Of a DNA stretch of 64,000 nucleotides, positions 24,034-32,526 are shown piece by piece. Position numbers and translations under genes: made by a program. Source of the stretch: Angustibacter luteus (lineage in GTDB: Bacteria > Actinomycetota > Actinomycetes > Actinomycetales > Angustibacteraceae). Position 1 is the first letter of the stretch; the number at the start of each line of letters is the position of its first letter. The stretch spans positions 496,001 through 560,000 of the forward strand of contig NZ_BAABFP010000005.1 of NCBI RefSeq assembly GCF_039541115.1, read 5' to 3'. The notes beneath the pieces are model-generated. The model ran no database searches and was not told where the DNA came from. It saw nothing but the letters and a program-made list of their open reading frames with translations.

Positions 24034-25395
24034 TCACATGCTCGCGATGAGCCGGTCCACCCGCTCGTCCGTGCTGGCGAACGGGTCCTTGCAGAGCACC
24101 GTGCGCTGCGCCTGGTCGTTCAGCTTCAGGTGCACCCAGTCGACCGTGAAGTCACGGCGCTGCTCCTGCGCCCGGCGGACGAAGTCGCCGCGCAGCTTCG
24201 CCCGGGTGGTCTGCGGCGGCACCGACTTGGCCTCGAAGATCTCGATGTCGCTGGCGACCCGCTCCACCCGGCCCGCGCGCTCCAGCAGGTAGTAGAGGCC
24301 CCGACGGCGGTGGATGTCGTGGTAGGCGAGGTCCAGCTGCGCGATCCGGGGGTGGGACAGGTCCATCCCGTGCTTCGCCTGGTACCGCTCGATCAGGCGC
24401 AGCTTGATGGCCCAGTCGATCTCGCGATCGATCAGCGACAGGTCGGCCGTGTCGACGGCGGTCAGCGTCCGCCGCCACAGCTCGAGCACCGCCTTGTGCG
24501 ACGGGCTGGTGGGGCCGCGGCGGTCGACGAAGTCCTGCGCCCGGTCCAGGTACTCGGTCTGGATCTCCAGCGCGGAGAGCTCTCGGCCGTTGGCCAGCCG
24601 GACCTTCTTGCGTCCGGTGACGTCGTGGCTGATCTCGCGGATCGCCCGGATCGGGTTCTCCAGCGTGAGGTCCCGCATGACGACGCCGGCCTCGATCATC
24701 TGCAGCACGATGTCGGCGGAGCCGAGCTTGAGCAGTGTCGTGCTCTCGCTCATGTTGGAGTCGCCGACGATGACGTGCAGGCGACGGTGGTGCTCGGCGT
24801 CCGCGTGCGGCTCGTCCCGGGTGTTGATGATCGGACGCGAGCGGGTGGTGGCGCTCGACACGCCCTCCCAGATGTGGTCCGCGCGCTGGCTGACGCAGTA
24901 GATCGCGCCACGAGGGGTCTGCAGCACCTTGCCCGCTCCGCAGATGATCTGCCGGCTGACCAGGAACGGGATCAGCACGTCCGACAGGCGCTGGAAGTCG
25001 CCGTGCCGGGAGACGAGGTAGTTCTCGTGGCAGCCGTAGCTGTTGCCGGCCGAGTCCGTGTTGTTCTTGAACAGGTAGACCTCGCCGGCGATGCCCTCGT
25101 CCTTCAGGCGCTGCTGCGCGTCGGCGACCAGGCCCTCGAGGATCCGCTCCCCCGCCTTGTCGTGCACCACGGCCTGGCGCAGGTCGTCGCACTCCGGTGT
25201 CGCGTACTCGGGGTGCGAGCCGACGTCCAGGTACAGCCGCGCGCCGTTGCGCAGGAAGACGTTGCTGGACCGGCCCCAGGACACCACGCGGCGGAACAGG
25301 TAACGGGCCACCTCGTCGGGGCTCAGGCGGCGCTGACCTTCGAACGAGCACGTCACCCCGTACTCGTTCTCGATCCCGAAGATACGTCGGTCCAC
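24034..25395 (-). CDS. pafA: Pup--protein ligase
   Basis: [47 protein letters not shown]. Confidence 0.97.
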
Positions 25396-25429
25396 GGGGC
25401 TCCCTCCTGCGCTCGGGCCTTCACCCACC

Positions 25430-27104: not shown

Positions 27105-27860
27105 TCAGCTGTCGTCCGGCTGACCCGGCCGCTCGTCGACGTGCGGGACGTCGCTCGTCGGGTCGCTCGGGCTCAGCAGCCGCTCCAGCAGGTCACCGGT
27201 GATCCGGCGGAACAGGCGGCGGTCGCGCTGCCGGTCCAGCACCGCGGCCTCGATGACCTCGGGGCCGAGGACGCGCGGCTCGCCGCCGGCCGGGTCGACC
27301 CCCAGCAGCTCGACCGCCAGCGACAGCGCCTCACCCAGGGTCAGGTCCGGGCGCCAGCGCTCCTCGAGCCCGGTGATGATCGCCTCAGGCTGACCGCCCA
27401 TGGCGACGAAGCCCTGCTCGTCCGCGACGGAGCCGTCGTAGGTGATCCGGTAGATCTGGTCGCCCTCGGGCCGCTGGGCGACCTCGGCGACGACGATCTC
27501 GACCTCGTACGGCTTGGACTCCTGGGTGAACACGGTCCCGAGGGTCTGCGCGTAGGCGTTGGCCAGGCCGCGGGCCGTCACGTCGCTGCGGTCGTAGGAG
27601 TAGCCGCGCAGGTCGGCGTACCGGACTCCGGCCACCCGCAGGTTCTCGAACTCGTTGTACTTGCCGACAGCGGCGAAGGCGACGCGGTCGTAGATCTCGC
27701 TGACCTTGTGCAACGCCCGCGAGGTGTTCTCGGCGACGAAGGCGATCCCGCCGTCGTACCCCAGGACGACGGCCGACCGGCCGCGCGCGATCCCCTTGCG
27801 CGCGTAGTCGGCCCGGTCCTTCATGAGCTGCTCGGGCGAGACGTAGAACGGCATGCTCAT
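27105..27860 (-). CDS. prcA: 20S proteasome alpha subunit
   Basis: [35 protein letters not shown]. Confidence 0.97.
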
Positions 27861-28714
27861 CGGTCGCTCCCCTCCCCGCGCTGGAGTGCGCCGCCGGGAT
27901 CGCCTCGGCGCCCGGCGACCACCTGCTGGACGACCGCACCGAGGGTGTCGTCGTCCACCCGCCGGTAGCCCTCGACGTCCACGACGCCGACGACGGGCCA
28001 GATCTGCCGGTTGAGGTCCGGGCCACCGGTGGCCGAGTCGTCGTCCGCGGCGTCGTAGAGCGCCTCCACAGCGAACCGCACCGCCTGCTCGGACGTCAGG
28101 CCGGGGCGCCACATCTTCTTCAGGGCGCCGCGGGCGAACAGCGAGCCCGAGCCCACCGAGTGGTGGTGGTGCTCGCGGTAGCAGCCGCCGGTGACGTCGT
28201 AGCTGTAGATGCGACCCTGCCGGACGTCGACGTCGTAGCCGGCGAACAGCGGGACCACGGCGAGTCCCTGCATGGCGAGCCCGAGGTTGTTGCGGAGCAT
28301 GGTCGCGAGCCGGTTGGCCTTGCCCTCCAGGGAGAGCAGCGTGCCCTCGATCTTCTCGTAGTGCTCGAGCTCGACCTGGAAGAGCTTGACCAGCTCGATG
28401 GCGAGGCCTGCGCTGCCGGCGATGCCGACGCAGGAGTACTCGTCGGTGCCGAACACCTTCTCGATCTCGCGGTTGGCGATCATGCTGCCCATCGTCGCCC
28501 GGCGATCGCCGCCCATCACGACGCCGCCGTCGAACTCGACGGCCACGATCGTGGTGCCGTGCGGGATGTCTGGCACGGTGCCCGGGGGCAGCGCGCGGCC
28601 CGCCGGGAGCATCGTCGGGGCGTGCGCGGACAGGAAGTCGGTGAAGGACGACGACCCCGGCGAGGTGAACGCGCGTGGGAGTCGGCCGGCCGGATCGCGC
28701 TGGTCTGGGCTCAC
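27857..28714 (-). CDS. prcB: 20S proteasome beta subunit
   Basis: Propeptide [16 protein letters not shown] autocleavage site, [18 protein letters not shown]. Confidence 0.96.
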
Positions 28715-29454
28715 CTGGGCGACCCTACCCGGCGGTGGATCACCCGCTCGATCATCGACTCCACAACGGAGTCCGGACGCCGCCAGGACCGCGATTGCCA
28801 GTCGACGTAACCAGGTAGCACTACCGACGGAGCCGTCAGCGTGCCGTTGAGGTACTCGGCGGCGCGATCGAGGCGCGTCACCTCGTCGGAGAAGTTGCCC
28901 AGACCAGCGTTGCAGGTGAAGCACAGCAGAGCACGCACTCTGCCGGTGGCATGGTCGTGATCGACGTGGGCGTTCTCTCCCAAGGGCCGGAGGCAGATCG
29001 GGCAGAGACCAGCCTGGCGCGTGTGCATGAGATCGGCATCCTCAGCCGTGATGCCGTACCGCCGGATCAGGTGGTACGAACGAGATCCGCCGTGGAGTCG
29101 TTCCTTGGACGCCCTACCGCGTTGGTTGTGATGAAGCTTGCAGTACACGCCGAAGCCGGACACCGTTCCTCGATGTCTGGGAAACGCGTCCTCGCTTCTG
29201 AACTCTTCACAGTCCGGACACCATCGCTGGCCATCGGGGGCGTCGCGCGCCTCGCGCACCTTCTTACCCGCAGCGGCACGGCGCCTTCGATAGCTCGCCT
29301 TGTTGATGGCTTGAAAGCAATCTCGGCAGTACTCAGCCAAACCGTCGCCACGAGACGCATTGTTACCGAAGCTGGCGATGGGCTTCTCCTGGGTACAACG
29401 GCGGCACAACTTCGAGAGAACCACCGGCCTCCGTTCGTCCGAGGCCTCGTTCAT
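28711..29454 (-). CDS. Endonuclease VII-family (His-Me) nuclease with N-terminal Zn-finger motifs; candidate free-standing homing endonuclease
   Basis: CPIC...[40 protein letters not shown]; visibly more AT-rich codons than neighbours; overlaps pup stop and prcB start. Confidence 0.85.
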
Positions 29455-29648
29455 TGGCCGCCCTTTTGCACGAAGCTGCGCACAAAATCTTCGGCATTGG
29501 CTTCCAAAACTTCGTCGATCTCGTCCAGGACGGAGTCGATGTCGTCGTCCAGCCCCTCCTTGGTCGCCGCACCGGCCGGGATGGGCGCCGGGGCCTCGTC
29601 GGGCTCGTCGTCGCGACGCTGCGGGCGCTGCTGCTCCTGACCGGGCAT
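29451..29648 (-). CDS. pup: Prokaryotic ubiquitin-like protein Pup
   Basis: [34 protein letters not shown]. Confidence 0.97.
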   Translation of the reverse strand: MPGQEQQRPQRRDDEPDEAPAPIPAGAATKEGLDDDIDSVLDEIDEVLEANAEDFVRSFVQKGGQ

Positions 29649-29810
29649 GACGTCCTCCTGGGGGTGAGTGCTCCGAGTTCCACCCTAGTCGCGGGTGCTG
29701 ACACCCGTGTGGTTCAACGCGGGATCTCGCCTGGCGAGCCACCCGCGCGCGCGATCCAACACAGGCGTATCGTCCCGCATGGCAAGACCACCATCCCGAG
29801 GAGTGAGATC

Positions 29811-31034
29811 GTGCACGCGTCGCGCCAGCGCTGGCTGGTCCTCGCCGTCGGGCTGTTCGCCCAGACGTCGGCGTCCAGCCTGGTCTACGGCGTGCCGTTC
29901 CTCGTCCCGGCGCTCCGCGACCAGGACGGGCTCACGCTCGCCCAGGCCGGCGCCCTCGTCTCGGCCCCCGTCACCGGACTGCTCGTCGCCCTCATCGCCT
30001 GGGGCGCCCTTGCCGACCGGTACGGCGAGCGCGTCGTGATGGCCAGCGGCCTCGCCATCACCACCGTGGCCACCGCCGTGGTGGGGGTGAGCGAGCCGAC
30101 GCTGCGGACCGCGGCCGCCTGGCTCTTCGTCGCGGGCATCGGCGGCGCCAGCGTCAATGCGGCCAGTGGTCGCCTCGTCATGGGCTGGTTCGCCCGCGAC
30201 CAGCGCGGCCTGGCCATGGGGATCCGGCAGACCGCCCAACCGCTCGGCGTCGCGGTCGCTGCCGCCACGCTGCCCAGCCTCGCCGCCGACGTCGGTGTCA
30301 CCCGTGCGCTCCTGCTGCCTGCGACCCTCTGCGGGCTGGCCGCGCTGCTGGTCACCGCCCTCGCCGTGGACCCTCCCCGACCGCCGCTCGACGCCGACGC
30401 ACCGAAGCCCGCGTCCCCCTATCGCGAGCCCGTGCTCTGGCGGCTGCACACCGCCAGCGCGCTGCTGGTGCTCCCCCAGTTCGCGATCGCCGCCTTCTCC
30501 GTCGAGTACCTCGTCCGCGAGCAGCACTGGCACGCGGCCAGCGCCGGGGCGTTCGTCGCCGCGCTGCAGGTCTGCGGGGCGGTCGGACGCATCGGCACGG
30601 GGATCTGGTCCGACGCCGTCGGCAGCCGGCTGCGGCCGATGCGCCAGCTCGCCCTCGCCAGCGCGACCGTGATGCTGGTTCTGGCCGCCGGCGACGCCTG
30701 GGCGGGGTGGCTGGCGGTCGCCGCCATCGCCATCGGGTCGATGGTGACCGTCGCGGACAACGGCCTCGCGTTCACCGCCACCGCGGAGATCGCTGGCCAG
30801 CGCTGGGCCGGCCGCGCGCTGGGCATCCAGAACACCGGGCAGAACGTCGTCGCCTCCGCCGCTCCCCCGCTGCTGGGTGCCCTGGTCGGCGCCCGCGGCT
30901 ACGCCGTCGGCTTCGCGGTCGTCGCGCTGTTCCCGCTGGTCTCGTACGTCGTGACTCCGGTGGCCGCCGAGGACCGGCGCCGGGCGCGGGCCGAGCGACG
31001 CGAACCGGTCAGCGGGCCGCCAGCGCGGCCATGA
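29811..31034 (+). CDS. MFS transporter
   Basis: [26 protein letters not shown], about 12 TM helices. Confidence 0.9.
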
Positions 31035-32526
31035 GCTCCTCCGCGGTGTCGCTGGCGTCGATCAGCGCACCGACGACGTCCCGGCCGCCACGAGCCGGCT
31101 CGAGCATCGGCACGCGTTGCAGGGAGTCGCGCCCGGGGATGTCGAAGATGACCGAGTCCCACGAGGCCGCGGCGACGTCCTTGCCGTACTTGGCCAGGCA
31201 GCGGCCGCGGAAGTACGCCCGGGTGTCCTCCGGCGGCTCCTCGACGGCCAGGGCCACCGCGTCGTCCGGCACCAGCTGCTCCATGCGTCCGCGCGCCACC
31301 AGGCGCTGGTAGAGCCCCTTCTCCGGCCGGACGTCGGTGTACTGGACGTCGATCAGCCCGAGCCTCGGGTGGTCCCACTCCAGGCCCTCGCGCTCGCGGA
31401 ACCCTTCCAGGAGAGCCAGCTTCGCCACCCAGTCGAGCTCGCGCGAGCACTCCATCGGGTCCCGCTCGAGTCGGGTCAGCACCGACTCCCAGCGCTCCAG
31501 CACCTCGACGGTGTCGGCGTCGACGTCCGACCCCATCCGCTCGTCGACGTACGCCCGGGCCTGCTCCAGGTAGGCCCACTGCAGCTGGACGGCGGTCAGC
31601 TTGGTCCCGTCCCGCAGCGTGAGCATGGTCTTGAGCGTCGGGTCGTGCGAGACCGCGCGCAACGCGGCGACCGGCCGGTCCACGGTGAGGTCCCGCTTCA
31701 GCGCCCGGTCCTCGACCATCGCCAGCACCAGGGACGTCGTCCCGAGCTTGAGCAGGGTCGCGACCTCGGCCAGGTTCGCGTCGCCGATGATCACGTGCAG
31801 CCGCCGGTACTTGTCTGCACTCGCGTGCGGCTCGTCCCGGGTGTTCACGATCGGCCGCTTCAGCGTGGTCTCCAGCCCGACCTCCACCTCGAAGAAGTCG
31901 GCGCGCTGGGTGAGCTGGTAGCCGGCCTCCTCGCTCTGCGCGCCCAGGCCGACCCGCCCGGCGCCGCAGAACACCTGCCGCGAGACGAAGAACGGCACGA
32001 GGTGCCGGACGATGTCCGCGAACGGGGTGGCCCGGCTCATCAGGTAGTTCTCGTGGGTCCCGTACGACGAGCCCTTGCCGTCGGTGTTGTTCTTGTAGAG
32101 GTTGACCGGGCTCAGCCCCGGGGTGCTCGCGATGGTCCGCACCGCCGACTGCATGATCCGCTCCCCCGCCTTGTCCCAGCGGACGGCGTCCCGCGGGCTC
32201 ATCACCTCCGGCGAGCTGTACTCCGGGTGCGCGTGGTCGACGTACAGCCTTGCGCCGTTGGTCAGGATCACGTTGGCGAGGGTCGGGTCCTCCTCGTCGG
32301 TGAGCTGCGAGGCGTCGGCCAGGGCCCGGCTCATCTCGAAGCCGCGGGCGTCGCGCAACGGCGCCTCGTCCTCGTAGTCCCAGCGGGCGCGGCCGGCGCG
32401 GTTGCCGAGCGGCTGCGCGTACGCGTTCACCACGAGCCCCGACATGATCATCGGGTTCGCCTCCGGCGCCCCGGGCTCGGAGATGCCGTACTCGGTCTCG
32501 ATCCCCATCACCCGTCGCACGCTCAC
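31009..32526 (-). CDS. dop: Pup deamidase/depupylase
   Basis: [43 protein letters not shown]. Confidence 0.97.

Follow-up and report, generated by a model that had tools for sequence, protein, structure and literature searches.

The endonuclease gene between pup and prcB

The window analysed here, a stretch of 64,000 nt from Angustibacter luteus (assembly GCF_039541115.1, contig NZ_BAABFP010000005.1, positions 496,001–560,000 of the forward strand), carries the pup, prcB and prcA genes, and between the first two lies a predicted endonuclease gene (product P0001) that overlaps both of its neighbours (Table 1). Its ATG (29454–29452) shares bases with the TGA of pup (29453–29451) and its own TGA (28713–28711) with the GTG of prcB (28714–28712), so that sequence and translation confirmed the 247-aa ORF and the ATGA and GTGA overlaps reported in a preliminary description of this DNA. 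The gap between pup and dop measures 1.36 kb and contains an MFS transporter gene on the opposite strand; by Pfam, Dop and PafA (PF03136) are more distant neighbours of the endonuclease gene. A genome search found the gene to be single-copy in its own 4.16-Mb genome. Also as first described, inspection of the neighbourhood revealed no transposase, intron or intein. In a repeat search the ORF was not flanked by terminal repeats, either direct or inverted, which speaks against insertion in the manner of a transposon. The claimed AT-richness held as well, with a GC content of 0.59–0.65 in the ORF against 0.70–0.76 in the flanks, and a GC3 of 0.75 against 0.94 in prcB and 0.97 in prcA.

Table 1. 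Features of the pup–prcB region, in positions of the 64,000-nt window.
Feature	Position	Strand	Description
prcA (proteasome alpha subunit)	27105..27860	-	Pfam PF00227, E 2.6e-17
prcB (proteasome beta subunit)	27857..28714	-	Pfam PF00227, E 1.9e-40
Endonuclease gene (P0001)	28711..29454	-	744-nt ORF, 247 aa plus stop; two Zn-ribbons, F-CphI-like EndoVII (DHHRN) domain, C-terminal tail
GTGA overlap, endonuclease stop/prcB GTG start	28711..28714	-	sequence read directly
C-terminal tail	28714..28845	-	residues 204–247; poorly conserved; pLDDT drops to 47–64
EndoVII/His-Me catalytic domain	28846..29067	-	residues 130–203; from Pfam, T4 residue mapping, conservation and Foldseek
Zn-ribbon 2	29131..29229	-	residues 76–108; C79, C82, C105, H108; corresponds to the single ribbon of F-CphI
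Zn-ribbon 1	29317..29415	-	residues 14–46; C17, C20, C43, C46; followed by a long helix
ATGA overlap, pup stop/endonuclease start	29451..29454	-	sequence read directly
pup	29451..29648	-	65 aa, C-terminus ...FVQKGGQ; Pfam PF05639, E 8.3e-25
AT-enriched synonymous footprint, last 18 pup codons	29454..29507	-	GC3 0.61 vs 0.86 in the preceding 22 codons
dop (Pup deamidase/depupylase)	31009..32526	-	Pfam PF03136, E 4e-190

Residues 130–203 matched the Pfam family Endonuclease_7 (PF02945; E 1.1e-21, 76.9 bits, cut-off 23.6) and the protein matched PHROG 2633, "endonuclease VII" (E 1.7e-41), but no NCBIfam family. The EndoVII core motifs of the preliminary description were located at residues 151–154 (CPIC), 163–168 (HVDHDH) and 176–186 (the third motif), and its zinc-finger-like N-terminal motifs proved to be two CxxC...CxxC/H ribbons. 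The Cys4 zinc site of the core (C151, C154, C178, C181; pattern CX2-4C...CX2C) aligns to C23, C26, C58 and C61 of T4 endonuclease VII, and the DHHRN residues (D165, H166, H168, R174, N182) to its D40, H41, H43, R54 and N62. In an alignment of 39 homologues D165, H166, R174 and N182 never vary, and conservation of H168 is 90% or higher; C79 and C105 of ribbon 2 are likewise invariant, and C82 and the four cysteines of ribbon 1 reach at least 90%. The window copy retains every residue that is invariant in this alignment. An AF2 model of the protein (pLDDT 87.4) has strands at residues 14–43 and a helix at 44–61 in the region of ribbon 1, and its best solved matches in Foldseek were Hpy99I and T4 endonuclease VII, in keeping with the beta-beta-alpha-metal fold of His-Me finger nucleases. 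The last ~25 residues of the tail are common only to the closest metagenomic homologue (P0002). Judged by these features, the window copy looks intact. A predicted complex of the endonuclease with Pup gave neither support for an interaction nor a verdict against one, and carries no weight in either direction. In a search of sequencing runs, none contained more than 0.10 of the sampled words.

Occupied, empty and decaying sites

The family is phylum-wide and resides just downstream of pup. Among the best 80 named loci, pup lies just upstream in 79, the remaining locus being cut. In a survey of 41 sampled genomes of relatives (many of them MAGs), 34 have prcB, and the endonuclease is present in nine of these, the other 25 giving no match. 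All eight matches in relatives adjoin pup, and prcB follows directly in six of them; in one of the other two prcB is 3.2 kb farther on (G002), in the other it is on a different contig (G018). On a PrcB+PrcA tree of 30 genomes, this presence needs at least seven state changes, and shuffled labels, with a mean of 7.8, did no worse.

Empty sites were found close to the window. In three congeners the site is cleanly empty, the stop of pup overlapping the same GTG of prcB (caGTGA). Two empty alleles (G007 and G014) retain about 40 nt of the 3' end of the gene, including the stop codon (z 7.6 and 10.8); deletion scars are present in a sister genus. A scar search in the other spacer-type empty sites gave weak signals in G006 and G025 (z ~3, at the extreme prcB-proximal end) and nothing significant in six others. 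By eye, the 5' part of the G007 and G014 spacers resembles the start of the gene.

Degenerate copies are frequent. The copy in G003 ends early, after HVDHDH..VRG, and that in G038 has H166 replaced by R. Across 151 Micromonospora genomes we obtained 80 full-length matches and 58 partial ones, with 13 genomes in which the gene was undetected; all 20 partial matches inspected are at pup–prcB, and 19 of them have deletions, frameshifts or missing ligands. Instead of the universal, vertically inherited presence that the preliminary description had set against its proposal of homing, the relatives thus show scattered presence, with empty sites and scars within the same genus and family, pseudogenes and allele replacement (see below). 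Presence/absence polymorphism at one fixed site, together with degenerate copies, is the pattern expected of homing genes, which go through a cycle of invasion, decay and loss. A core component of the Pup-proteasome system would hardly be absent from so many prcB-bearing relatives or degenerate in many Micromonospora species.

The endonuclease might also be dispensable and yet serve its host. It would then belong to the Pup-proteasome locus, derive from an EndoVII gene of phage type taken over by an ancestor, and be lost where unneeded; made along with Pup and the proteasome by co-translation, it would have a part in repairing or recombining DNA, e.g. on branched DNA in the DNA-damage response. 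In mycobacteria this response is controlled by the neighbouring pafBC regulators. Such a role would suit the coupled operon position, conserved over many orders, the catalytic residues invariant in the 39 aligned homologues and the Y-family polymerase gene that adjoins the endonuclease gene in Nonomuraea. Jablonska et al. 2017 (PMC5714182), who report the pup/prcB linkage of actinobacterial EndoVII genes (their group 13) in one sentence and a supplementary figure, suggest that these genes function in the Pup-proteasome system. The many prcB-bearing relatives that give no match and the partial copies in Micromonospora, nearly all degenerate where inspected, speak against a host function, which we consider a serious but rather unlikely explanation. 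Group 13 is the same gene family with the same genomic association; turnover, pseudogenes, allele exchange and homing are not analysed in that paper. With this linkage in print, and with SCO1645 and a Micromonospora lupini protein among the actinobacterial members in the supplement of the F-CphI paper (PMC6083498), the novelty of a gene at this position is weakened. Our literature search returned nothing on homing or a nuclease at pup–prcB and nothing on SCO1645; nuclease terms are absent from Iyer 2008 (PMC2588565), and PMC11323726 was discarded, its sole match being "endonuclease VIII".

Probable allele replacement, the 3' end of pup and proposed homing

The synonymous divergence of the gene can greatly exceed that of its flanks. 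Between two Micromonospora loci (L057 and L070) dS is 0.52 in the endonuclease and 0.08–0.12 in the flanks; a control pair (L065 and L083) has no such excess (0.22 vs 0.15–0.33). In the focal genus (G000 and G003) pS is 0.80 in the endonuclease vs 0.35–0.48 in the flanks, an excess less clean than that of Micromonospora because the strong GC3 bias lowers the apparent synonymous divergence of the flanks. Identity falls abruptly at the borders of the endonuclease gene. These patterns favour replacement of alleles over divergence in place.

Within Micromonosporaceae the two halves of the protein appear to have different histories. The C-terminal half follows the host, with Micromonospora as one clade (support 95). 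In the N-terminal half there are two types, separated by a branch of 0.79 (support 99), and Micromonospora and the Actinoplanes group each have both. The pS is 0.60–0.63 in the N-terminal half and 0.22 in the C-terminal half. In 28 full-length Micromonospora loci the catalytic half has a pN/pS of ~0.25, i.e. it is under purifying selection, which limits a homing reading since a benefit to the host would yield the same; N-terminal pN/pS is at most ~0.3 within types, with no sign of positive selection.

Two further explanations bear on these data. A stand-alone defence or restriction nuclease (Hpy99I-like or modification-dependent), merely lodged in the operon, would have a variable N-terminal module that follows shifting phage targets by diversifying or balancing selection. 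The hypervariable N-terminus, putatively the part that recognises DNA, the conserved catalytic half and the frequent losses, typical of defence genes, are in line with this, as are the best structural and PADLOC matches, which are to the type II enzyme Hpy99I. However, the sole PADLOC match (REase_II, E 1.5e-7) is weak and covers the catalytic core only, no methyltransferase or partner gene is adjacent, the neighbours being the overlapping pup and prcB, and the N-terminal pN/pS is low within types. In addition, defence genes are not known to stay at one and the same point between a pair of housekeeping genes throughout a phylum, as the endonuclease gene does in all but the cut locus of the best 80. 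A defence function therefore seems quite improbable. The least probable explanation is that the gene is an inactive, near-neutral relic whose divergence and AT enrichment come from a mutational hotspot at this place or from relaxed selection on codon use. Decay is visible in many copies, and relaxed selection under AT-biased mutation gives low GC3 and fast divergence. But the window copy keeps all family-invariant residues and a confidently predicted fold, the catalytic half is constrained, the control pair has no intrinsic rate excess, and two N-terminal types found across genera beside a C-terminal half that tracks the host cannot come from local mutation.

At larger distances the gene tree and the host agree. 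Micromonosporaceae, Streptosporangiaceae, Geodermatophilaceae and the focal order each form one clade; since the gene tree mirrors the host at the family level and above, no long-range transfer is visible and an ancient vertical residence is required. In the focal genus an AU test left G000 and G003 as sisters unrejected (p 0.43), so that the topological conflict is not significant, and Micromonospora monophyly gave an AU p of 0.047, for a group chosen after the tree was seen. The comparison of gene and host trees called for in the preliminary description is thus divided, with congruence from the family level upwards and the AU results on one side, synonymous excess and N-terminal types common to different genera on the other. 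The family-level congruence and the purifying selection on the C-terminal half are also what a nuclease in the service of the host would show, but the synonymous divergence and the trans-genus types need an exchange of alleles, which that model does not predict.

Composition, too, fits homing better than a fixed place in the operon. In all eight occupied loci of the order, and in nearly all of the best 80 named loci, the endonuclease has a lower GC3 than prcB, prcA and dop; a value still low after a supposedly long residence also speaks against a host gene. The AT enrichment extends into pup. In the focal order the mean GC3 of the last 18 pup codons is 0.70 in the eight occupied alleles vs 0.92 in 19 empty ones, the footprint being confined to the former, and the same sharp boundary is present in 28 Micromonospora loci. 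The first 18 codons of prcB do not differ between occupied and empty alleles (GC3 0.84 vs 0.83). A requirement of endonuclease expression could explain this one-sided footprint as well as co-conversion. A generic effect of gene junctions was rejected, since empty alleles keep their high GC3 even though prcB begins at the same place; the 3' ends of dop and prcB also mostly have a GC3 of 0.8–1.0. That AAAGGGGG is a mere ribosome-binding site of the endonuclease is doubtful: type II alleles of Micromonospora retain AAAGGGGG, and their start is ~25 nt farther downstream.

Overall the evolutionary pattern appears to speak more for a selfish gene of the homing type than for a fixed member of the operon. 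We therefore lean, with some reserve, towards a free-standing homing-type endonuclease gene (EndoVII-motif, DHHRN, F-CphI-like) at a fixed chromosomal site between pup and prcB. The selfish homing reading of the preliminary description is favoured by the scatter, the empty sites, the pseudogenes, the replacement and the alignment to F-CphI (see below), and is limited by the congruence with the host from the family level upwards; that 80 of the 151 Micromonospora genomes keep a full-length match also counts against it. All steps of the mechanism are modelled on the known behaviour of free-standing homing endonucleases. The enzyme would be translated off the operon mRNA through start/stop coupling, by which the operon would stay undisrupted. 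Its Zn-ribbon modules would recognise an extended stretch of conserved DNA, either around the 3' end of pup or at the pup–prcB junction, in alleles without the gene or with a different type of it, and the His-Me domain would cleave this DNA. A second allele would have arrived by conjugation or other DNA transfer between related actinomycetes, and recombinational repair would copy the gene into the cut allele, or alternatively only the N-terminal module with the adjoining 3' end of pup. With nothing left to invade, copies would decay and be deleted, leaving the site open to re-invasion.

A bolder version of the homing model, which we put forward only tentatively and think unlikely to hold in full, makes the pup–prcB junction a phylum-wide, self-sustaining chromosomal homing system in which a specificity cassette of ~400 bp is also a mobile unit and rival types interconvert. 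The cassette would consist of the Zn-ribbon recognition module and the recoded last ~18 codons of pup, recoded at synonymous positions, and would itself be the target that is made immune. Cassettes of rival types would cleave and convert one another across species and genera. In spite of steady decay, selection would thereby have acted on the nuclease over hundreds of millions of years, and the C-terminal Gln/Glu of Pup would be toggled as a side effect.

The textbook habitats of free-standing homing endonucleases are phages, introns and inteins. If homing is correct, an element persisting in a core cellular operon of a whole phylum would widen their known range and would offer a natural means of tracing the exchange of chromosomal DNA between actinomycetes. 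The many naturally occurring variants of the N-terminal Zn-ribbons, joined to a catalytic half that stays constant, would make a series of nucleases, possibly with different long recognition sites, and the recoded 3' end of pup, with its sharp boundary, is a candidate target or immunity site. For annotation, membership of the endonuclease gene in the Pup-proteasome system should not be assumed.

Comparison with known nucleases and homing genes

The closest characterised relative is F-CphI of cyanophage S-PM2, a biochemically characterised free-standing homing endonuclease and founder of the DHHRN family (Fang et al. 2018, PMC6083498). The BLASTP match is 41% identical (E 2e-17), and hhalign of the 39-sequence family profile (99.7%, E 5.6e-26) aligned F-CphI residues 7–140 of 142 with residues 74–204 of P0001, ribbon 2 aligning from F-CphI residue 7 on. 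In both, a linker helix joins a Zn-ribbon to an EndoVII motif in the C-terminal part, with D, H, H, R, N and the Cys4 site all present in P0001, and both genes are free-standing beside a conserved gene and not intron-borne. P0001 differs in its additional N-terminal Zn-ribbon and its C-terminal tail, and its gene is chromosomal, in a housekeeping operon, overlapping both neighbours, with an activity that is predicted only. Fang et al. delimit their "endonuclease clade" by a C-terminal EndoVII motif and an alignment along the whole of F-CphI (PMC6083498). P0001 has the C-terminal motif and aligns end to end with F-CphI. T4 endonuclease VII, a Holliday-junction resolvase, has the same catalytic motif, zinc site and a similar catalytic fold, but its motif lies at the N-terminus, ahead of a dimerisation domain, while that of P0001 is in the C-terminal half, and only T4 residues 10–74 of 157 align. 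By domain order P0001 belongs in the endonuclease clade of Fang et al. and not in the resolvase clade, and a relative that homes, not one that resolves junctions, again tells against a role in the service of the host.

The type II restriction endonuclease Hpy99I is the best match of solved structure (Foldseek E 3e-5, phmmer E 1.7e-6) and also has a C-terminal catalytic domain preceded by a recognition domain. The N-terminus of P0001 consists of Zn-ribbons; the N-terminal domain of Hpy99I is of another type.

Finally, the seg and mob genes of T-even and T7-like phages and the EndoVII genes beside DNA polymerase resemble the window gene in being intergenic with small overlaps with conserved genes, in their presence or absence among relatives and in affecting the flank on at least one side. 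Phage relatives with the same architecture occupy typical positions of free-standing homing genes, e.g. in Klebsiella phage IL33, where the gene overlaps the start of DNA polymerase. Phage homing genes spread in mixed infections, whereas the window gene would need DNA exchange between bacterial cells, and its family, unlike theirs, is anciently resident and follows host families.

Gene context and occupancy of the pup-prcB site

The 247-aa endonuclease ORF of the window lies between pup and prcB, its ATG sharing bases with the pup stop (ATGA) and its own stop with the prcB GTG start (GTGA). The preliminary description of the ORF, i.e. this position, both overlaps, an EndoVII core and AT enrichment, was recovered in full: Endonuclease_7 covers residues 130-203 (E 1.1e-21), GC is 0.59-0.65 over the ORF vs 0.70-0.76 in the surroundings, and GC3 is 0.75 (prcB 0.94, prcA 0.97). 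The gene is single-copy in its 4.16-Mb genome, and a repeat search found no repeats bracketing it. A 13-nt perfect inverted repeat joins the first prcB codons (28698-28710) with the NAGLG catalytic motif of the endonuclease (28897-28909), 186 nt apart; a hairpin that it may form in the mRNA could couple prcB translation to that of the endonuclease.

Features of the Pup-proteasome locus in the window
Feature	Position	Strand	Evidence
dop	31009-32526	minus	Pfam
pup	29451-29648	minus	Pfam
endonuclease ORF, 247 aa	28711-29454	minus	Pfam Endonuclease_7
prcB	27857-28714	minus	Pfam
prcA	27105-27860	minus	Pfam
pafA, beyond prcA	24034-25428	minus	Pfam

In an alignment of 39 homologues the N-terminal part consists of two Zn-ribbon repeats, both with a long helix after them, and a linker leads on to the EndoVII domain; C79, C105, C151, C154, D165, H166, R174, C178, C181 and N182 are invariant. 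The conserved residues map to C23, C26, D40, H41, H43, C58, C61 and N62 of T4 EndoVII (phmmer against solved structures). The AlphaFold model is confident (pLDDT 87.4), and its best matches among solved structures were Hpy99I (E 3e-5), a tandem zinc-finger domain and T4 EndoVII. Longer pup-linked proteins of Actinomadura (L063:2917-4155, 412 aa) and Nonomuraea (L054:2980-3978, 332 aa) carry two EndoVII domains per chain, possibly a single-chain pseudo-dimer.

Species-representative genomes hold at least 576 relatives. Among the best 80 loci, which include Micromonospora, Actinoplanes, Actinomadura, Nonomuraea, Geodermatophilaceae, Frankiaceae and Streptacidiphilus, pup is immediately upstream in 79 and the remaining locus is cut. 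A check across close relatives, as proposed initially, gave a mixed picture: among 41 genomes of the order (the window's own included) 34 have prcB and nine of these the endonuclease, which adjoins pup in all eight relatives. Within the genus, the window's genome (G000), G002 and G003 are occupied, and the site is empty and clean in G001, G004 and G005, where the pup stop shares the prcB GTG (caGTGA). Mapped onto a tree built from PrcB+PrcA of 30 genomes, presence requires at least seven changes; shuffled labels required 7.8 on average, and 161 of 500 shuffles needed as few as observed.

Other genes have entered the locus as well; all told, it has received three different insertions in this genus. 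The 1.36-kb gap between dop and pup in the window (29649-31008) contains a plus-strand MFS transporter gene (about 29820-31034; PF07690, E 4.5e-42), while about 100 nt separate the end of dop from pup in G001 and G002; G003 is 65-90% identical to the window in the stretch before pup and so probably shares the insertion. In G002, an opposite-strand gene for a 906-aa P-type cation ATPase (L040:2869-5589, plus strand) lies between the endonuclease gene and prcB, splitting the operon. A Nonomuraea locus has a Y-family (ImpB/DinB-type) DNA polymerase gene (L054:3951-5012, minus strand) and an unassigned 404-aa ORF in the same place.

Decay, loss and probable replacement

The window's genome and its sister G003 share 85-94% of their DNA sequence across pup, prcB and prcA, a value that falls to about 50% precisely within the endonuclease gene (pS 0.80, flanks 0.35-0.48). 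Similar excesses in dS were found for G000-G002 (1.87, flanks 0.36-0.56), G010-G012 (1.18, flanks 0.33-0.58) and the Micromonospora pair L057-L070 (0.52, flanks 0.08-0.12), although the strong GC3 bias of the flanks compresses their synonymous divergence. A control pair with closely related endonucleases (L065-L083) lacked the excess (0.22, flanks 0.15-0.33), so the synonymous rate of the gene is not intrinsically raised. Judged from these sequences, replacement of the gene would fit better than gradual change of a resident copy.

The divergent stretch has sharp borders in Micromonospora, comprising the final 50-80 nt of pup and the first ~110 endonuclease codons; similarity in the catalytic half and in prcB equals that of the remaining operon. 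The C-terminal half gives a tree that follows the host (Micromonospora one clade, 95*; L098 and L106 sisters, 98*), and in the N-terminal tree a branch of 0.79 (99*) separates two types, each of which occurs in Micromonospora as well as the Actinoplanes group. pS is 0.60-0.63 in the N-terminal half and 0.22 in the C-terminal half, and N-terminal pN is 0.19 within types vs 0.44 between them, with the Cys ligands retained.

Many copies are damaged. The G003 endonuclease ends directly after HVDHDH..VRG, and that of G038 has Arg at the H166 position. A family profile applied to 151 Micromonospora genomes gave 80 full-length single-frame matches, 58 that were partial, split or stop-containing, and 13 genomes with no match at E <= 1e-20. 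All 20 partial matches fetched lay at dop-pup-[remnant]-prcB-prcA, and 19 had deletions, frameshifts or missing zinc or catalytic ligands. The other (L132, genome G085) has an in-frame deletion after which a single ribbon remains, made up of the first half of ribbon 1 and the second of ribbon 2; its 170-aa product, with an intact catalytic domain, has the architecture of the cyanophage homing endonuclease F-CphI. That the window's own gene is an inactive relic is very improbable; it carries the invariant catalytic residues.

In a sister genus, one 90-nt spacer is common to the empty alleles of G007 and G014; its 3' end aligns with the final ~40 nt of the G012 gene, stop codon included (z 7.6 and 10.8 against shuffles), and its 5' part resembles by eye (unscored) the start of the endonuclease gene. 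This spacer is a deletion scar. G007 is sister to the occupied G012 in the flank tree; therefore the scar or the intact gene moved between lineages.

Two further observations concern related sequences. P0076 (179 aa), named in one source as Pup of Angustibacter aerolatus, is Pup-like over its first 18 residues and continues in frame into the endonuclease N-terminal region, stopping before the catalytic cysteines; either a frameshift has fused pup to the endonuclease gene or the sequence is in error, and the product is annotated as Pup. Several Micromonospora genomes also have another, shorter gene with an EndoVII domain, located away from pup (G106, L143:4063-4524, minus strand; similar matches in G131, G135, G091 and G080), with one in-frame stop in five places (four TAG, one TAA) and none in the sixth (G135:C90:37405-37842). 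No Pfam matches were found among its neighbouring ORFs, and the surroundings look like a mobile or prophage region.

The pup footprint and the nature of the element

Across 28 Micromonospora loci, the last 18 pup codons vary at third positions (diversity 0.14-0.68, mostly 0.4-0.7; GC3 roughly 0.1-0.75, two codons near 1.0) with invariant amino acids except for the final Gln/Glu, compared to diversity mostly 0-0.14 and GC3 about 1.0 in the preceding 22 codons. No GC3 drop was found at the dop and prcB 3' ends. In the window's order, mean GC3 of these 18 codons is 0.70 in eight occupied vs 0.92 in 19 empty alleles (0.61 in the window), that of the preceding 22 is alike (0.91 vs 0.92), and the prcB side has no footprint (0.84 vs 0.83).

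The Pup C-terminal residue, within this hypervariable stretch, switches among close relatives: the window ends in GGQ (codon 29454-29456) and G003 (L011) in GGE, and both endings occur in the 28 Micromonospora loci (L045-L110), in both N-terminal types. A Pup ending in Glu makes deamidation by Dop unnecessary.

On these comparative data we lean, by a little, towards a homing-type selfish gene at pup-prcB. Its spread would rely on homologous flanks and so be confined within families; copies would be continually inactivated and then deleted, and renewed by allele conversion, at times of the N-terminal recognition module only. Against this, the footprint is one-sided and a need for endonuclease expression could account for it. 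In the comparison of gene and host trees proposed at the outset, the endonuclease tree mirrors that of PrcB+PrcA above family level, which makes the gene an ancient resident and restricts any transfer to relatives. The AU tests are weak: Micromonospora monophyly gave delta lnL 70.5 and p 0.047 for a group picked after seeing the tree, and G000 and G003 as sisters were not rejected (p 0.43). A full-length match persists in over half of the Micromonospora genomes sampled, and the catalytic half is under purifying selection in the 28 loci; both points also tell against a selfish gene. A dispensable host nuclease linked to the Pup-proteasome/DNA-damage locus is a rather unlikely alternative to homing, and a defence-type nuclease an improbable one. 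The readings are not mutually exclusive, since a selfish origin could go together with some host use.

Relation to F-CphI and published EndoVII genes

Uncharacterised actinobacterial EndoVII genes are described as often downstream of pup or upstream of prcB, with a suggested Pup-proteasome role (Jablonska et al. 2017, PMC5714182). The cyanophage S-PM2 protein F-CphI, a homing endonuclease whose biochemistry has been characterised, uses an EndoVII motif and is the founder of the 'DHHRN' family, divided into an 'endonuclease clade' with the motif C-terminal and a 'resolvase clade' with it N-terminal, as in T4 (Fang et al. 2018, PMC6083498). The main text of that paper makes no mention of actinobacteria, and its supplement lists SCO1645, a Micromonospora lupini protein, a Blastococcus protein and a two-motif Frankia protein. 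Our literature search found nothing treating pup-linked EndoVII genes as homing elements or analysing their turnover. The endonuclease family, its pup/prcB association and the kind (free-standing DHHRN homing endonuclease) are published; what appears to be new is the phylum-wide home of such a gene in a core cellular operon, the way its copies decay and are replaced, the exchange of the recognition module and the recoding at the 3' end of pup.

Residues 69-205 of the window's protein match a 142-position phage 'endonuclease VII' family of PHROGs near full-length (E 1.7e-41). Compared directly, the F-CphI sequence, taken from the phage record, is 41% identical to the window's protein (BLASTP, E 2e-17), and the family profile covers residues 7-140 of its 142 (99.7%, E 5.6e-26), so that the window's protein is F-CphI-like over the whole length of F-CphI. 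Relative to F-CphI it has one further ribbon at the N terminus and a tail at the C terminus. Its alignment with T4 EndoVII is limited to T4 residues 10-74.
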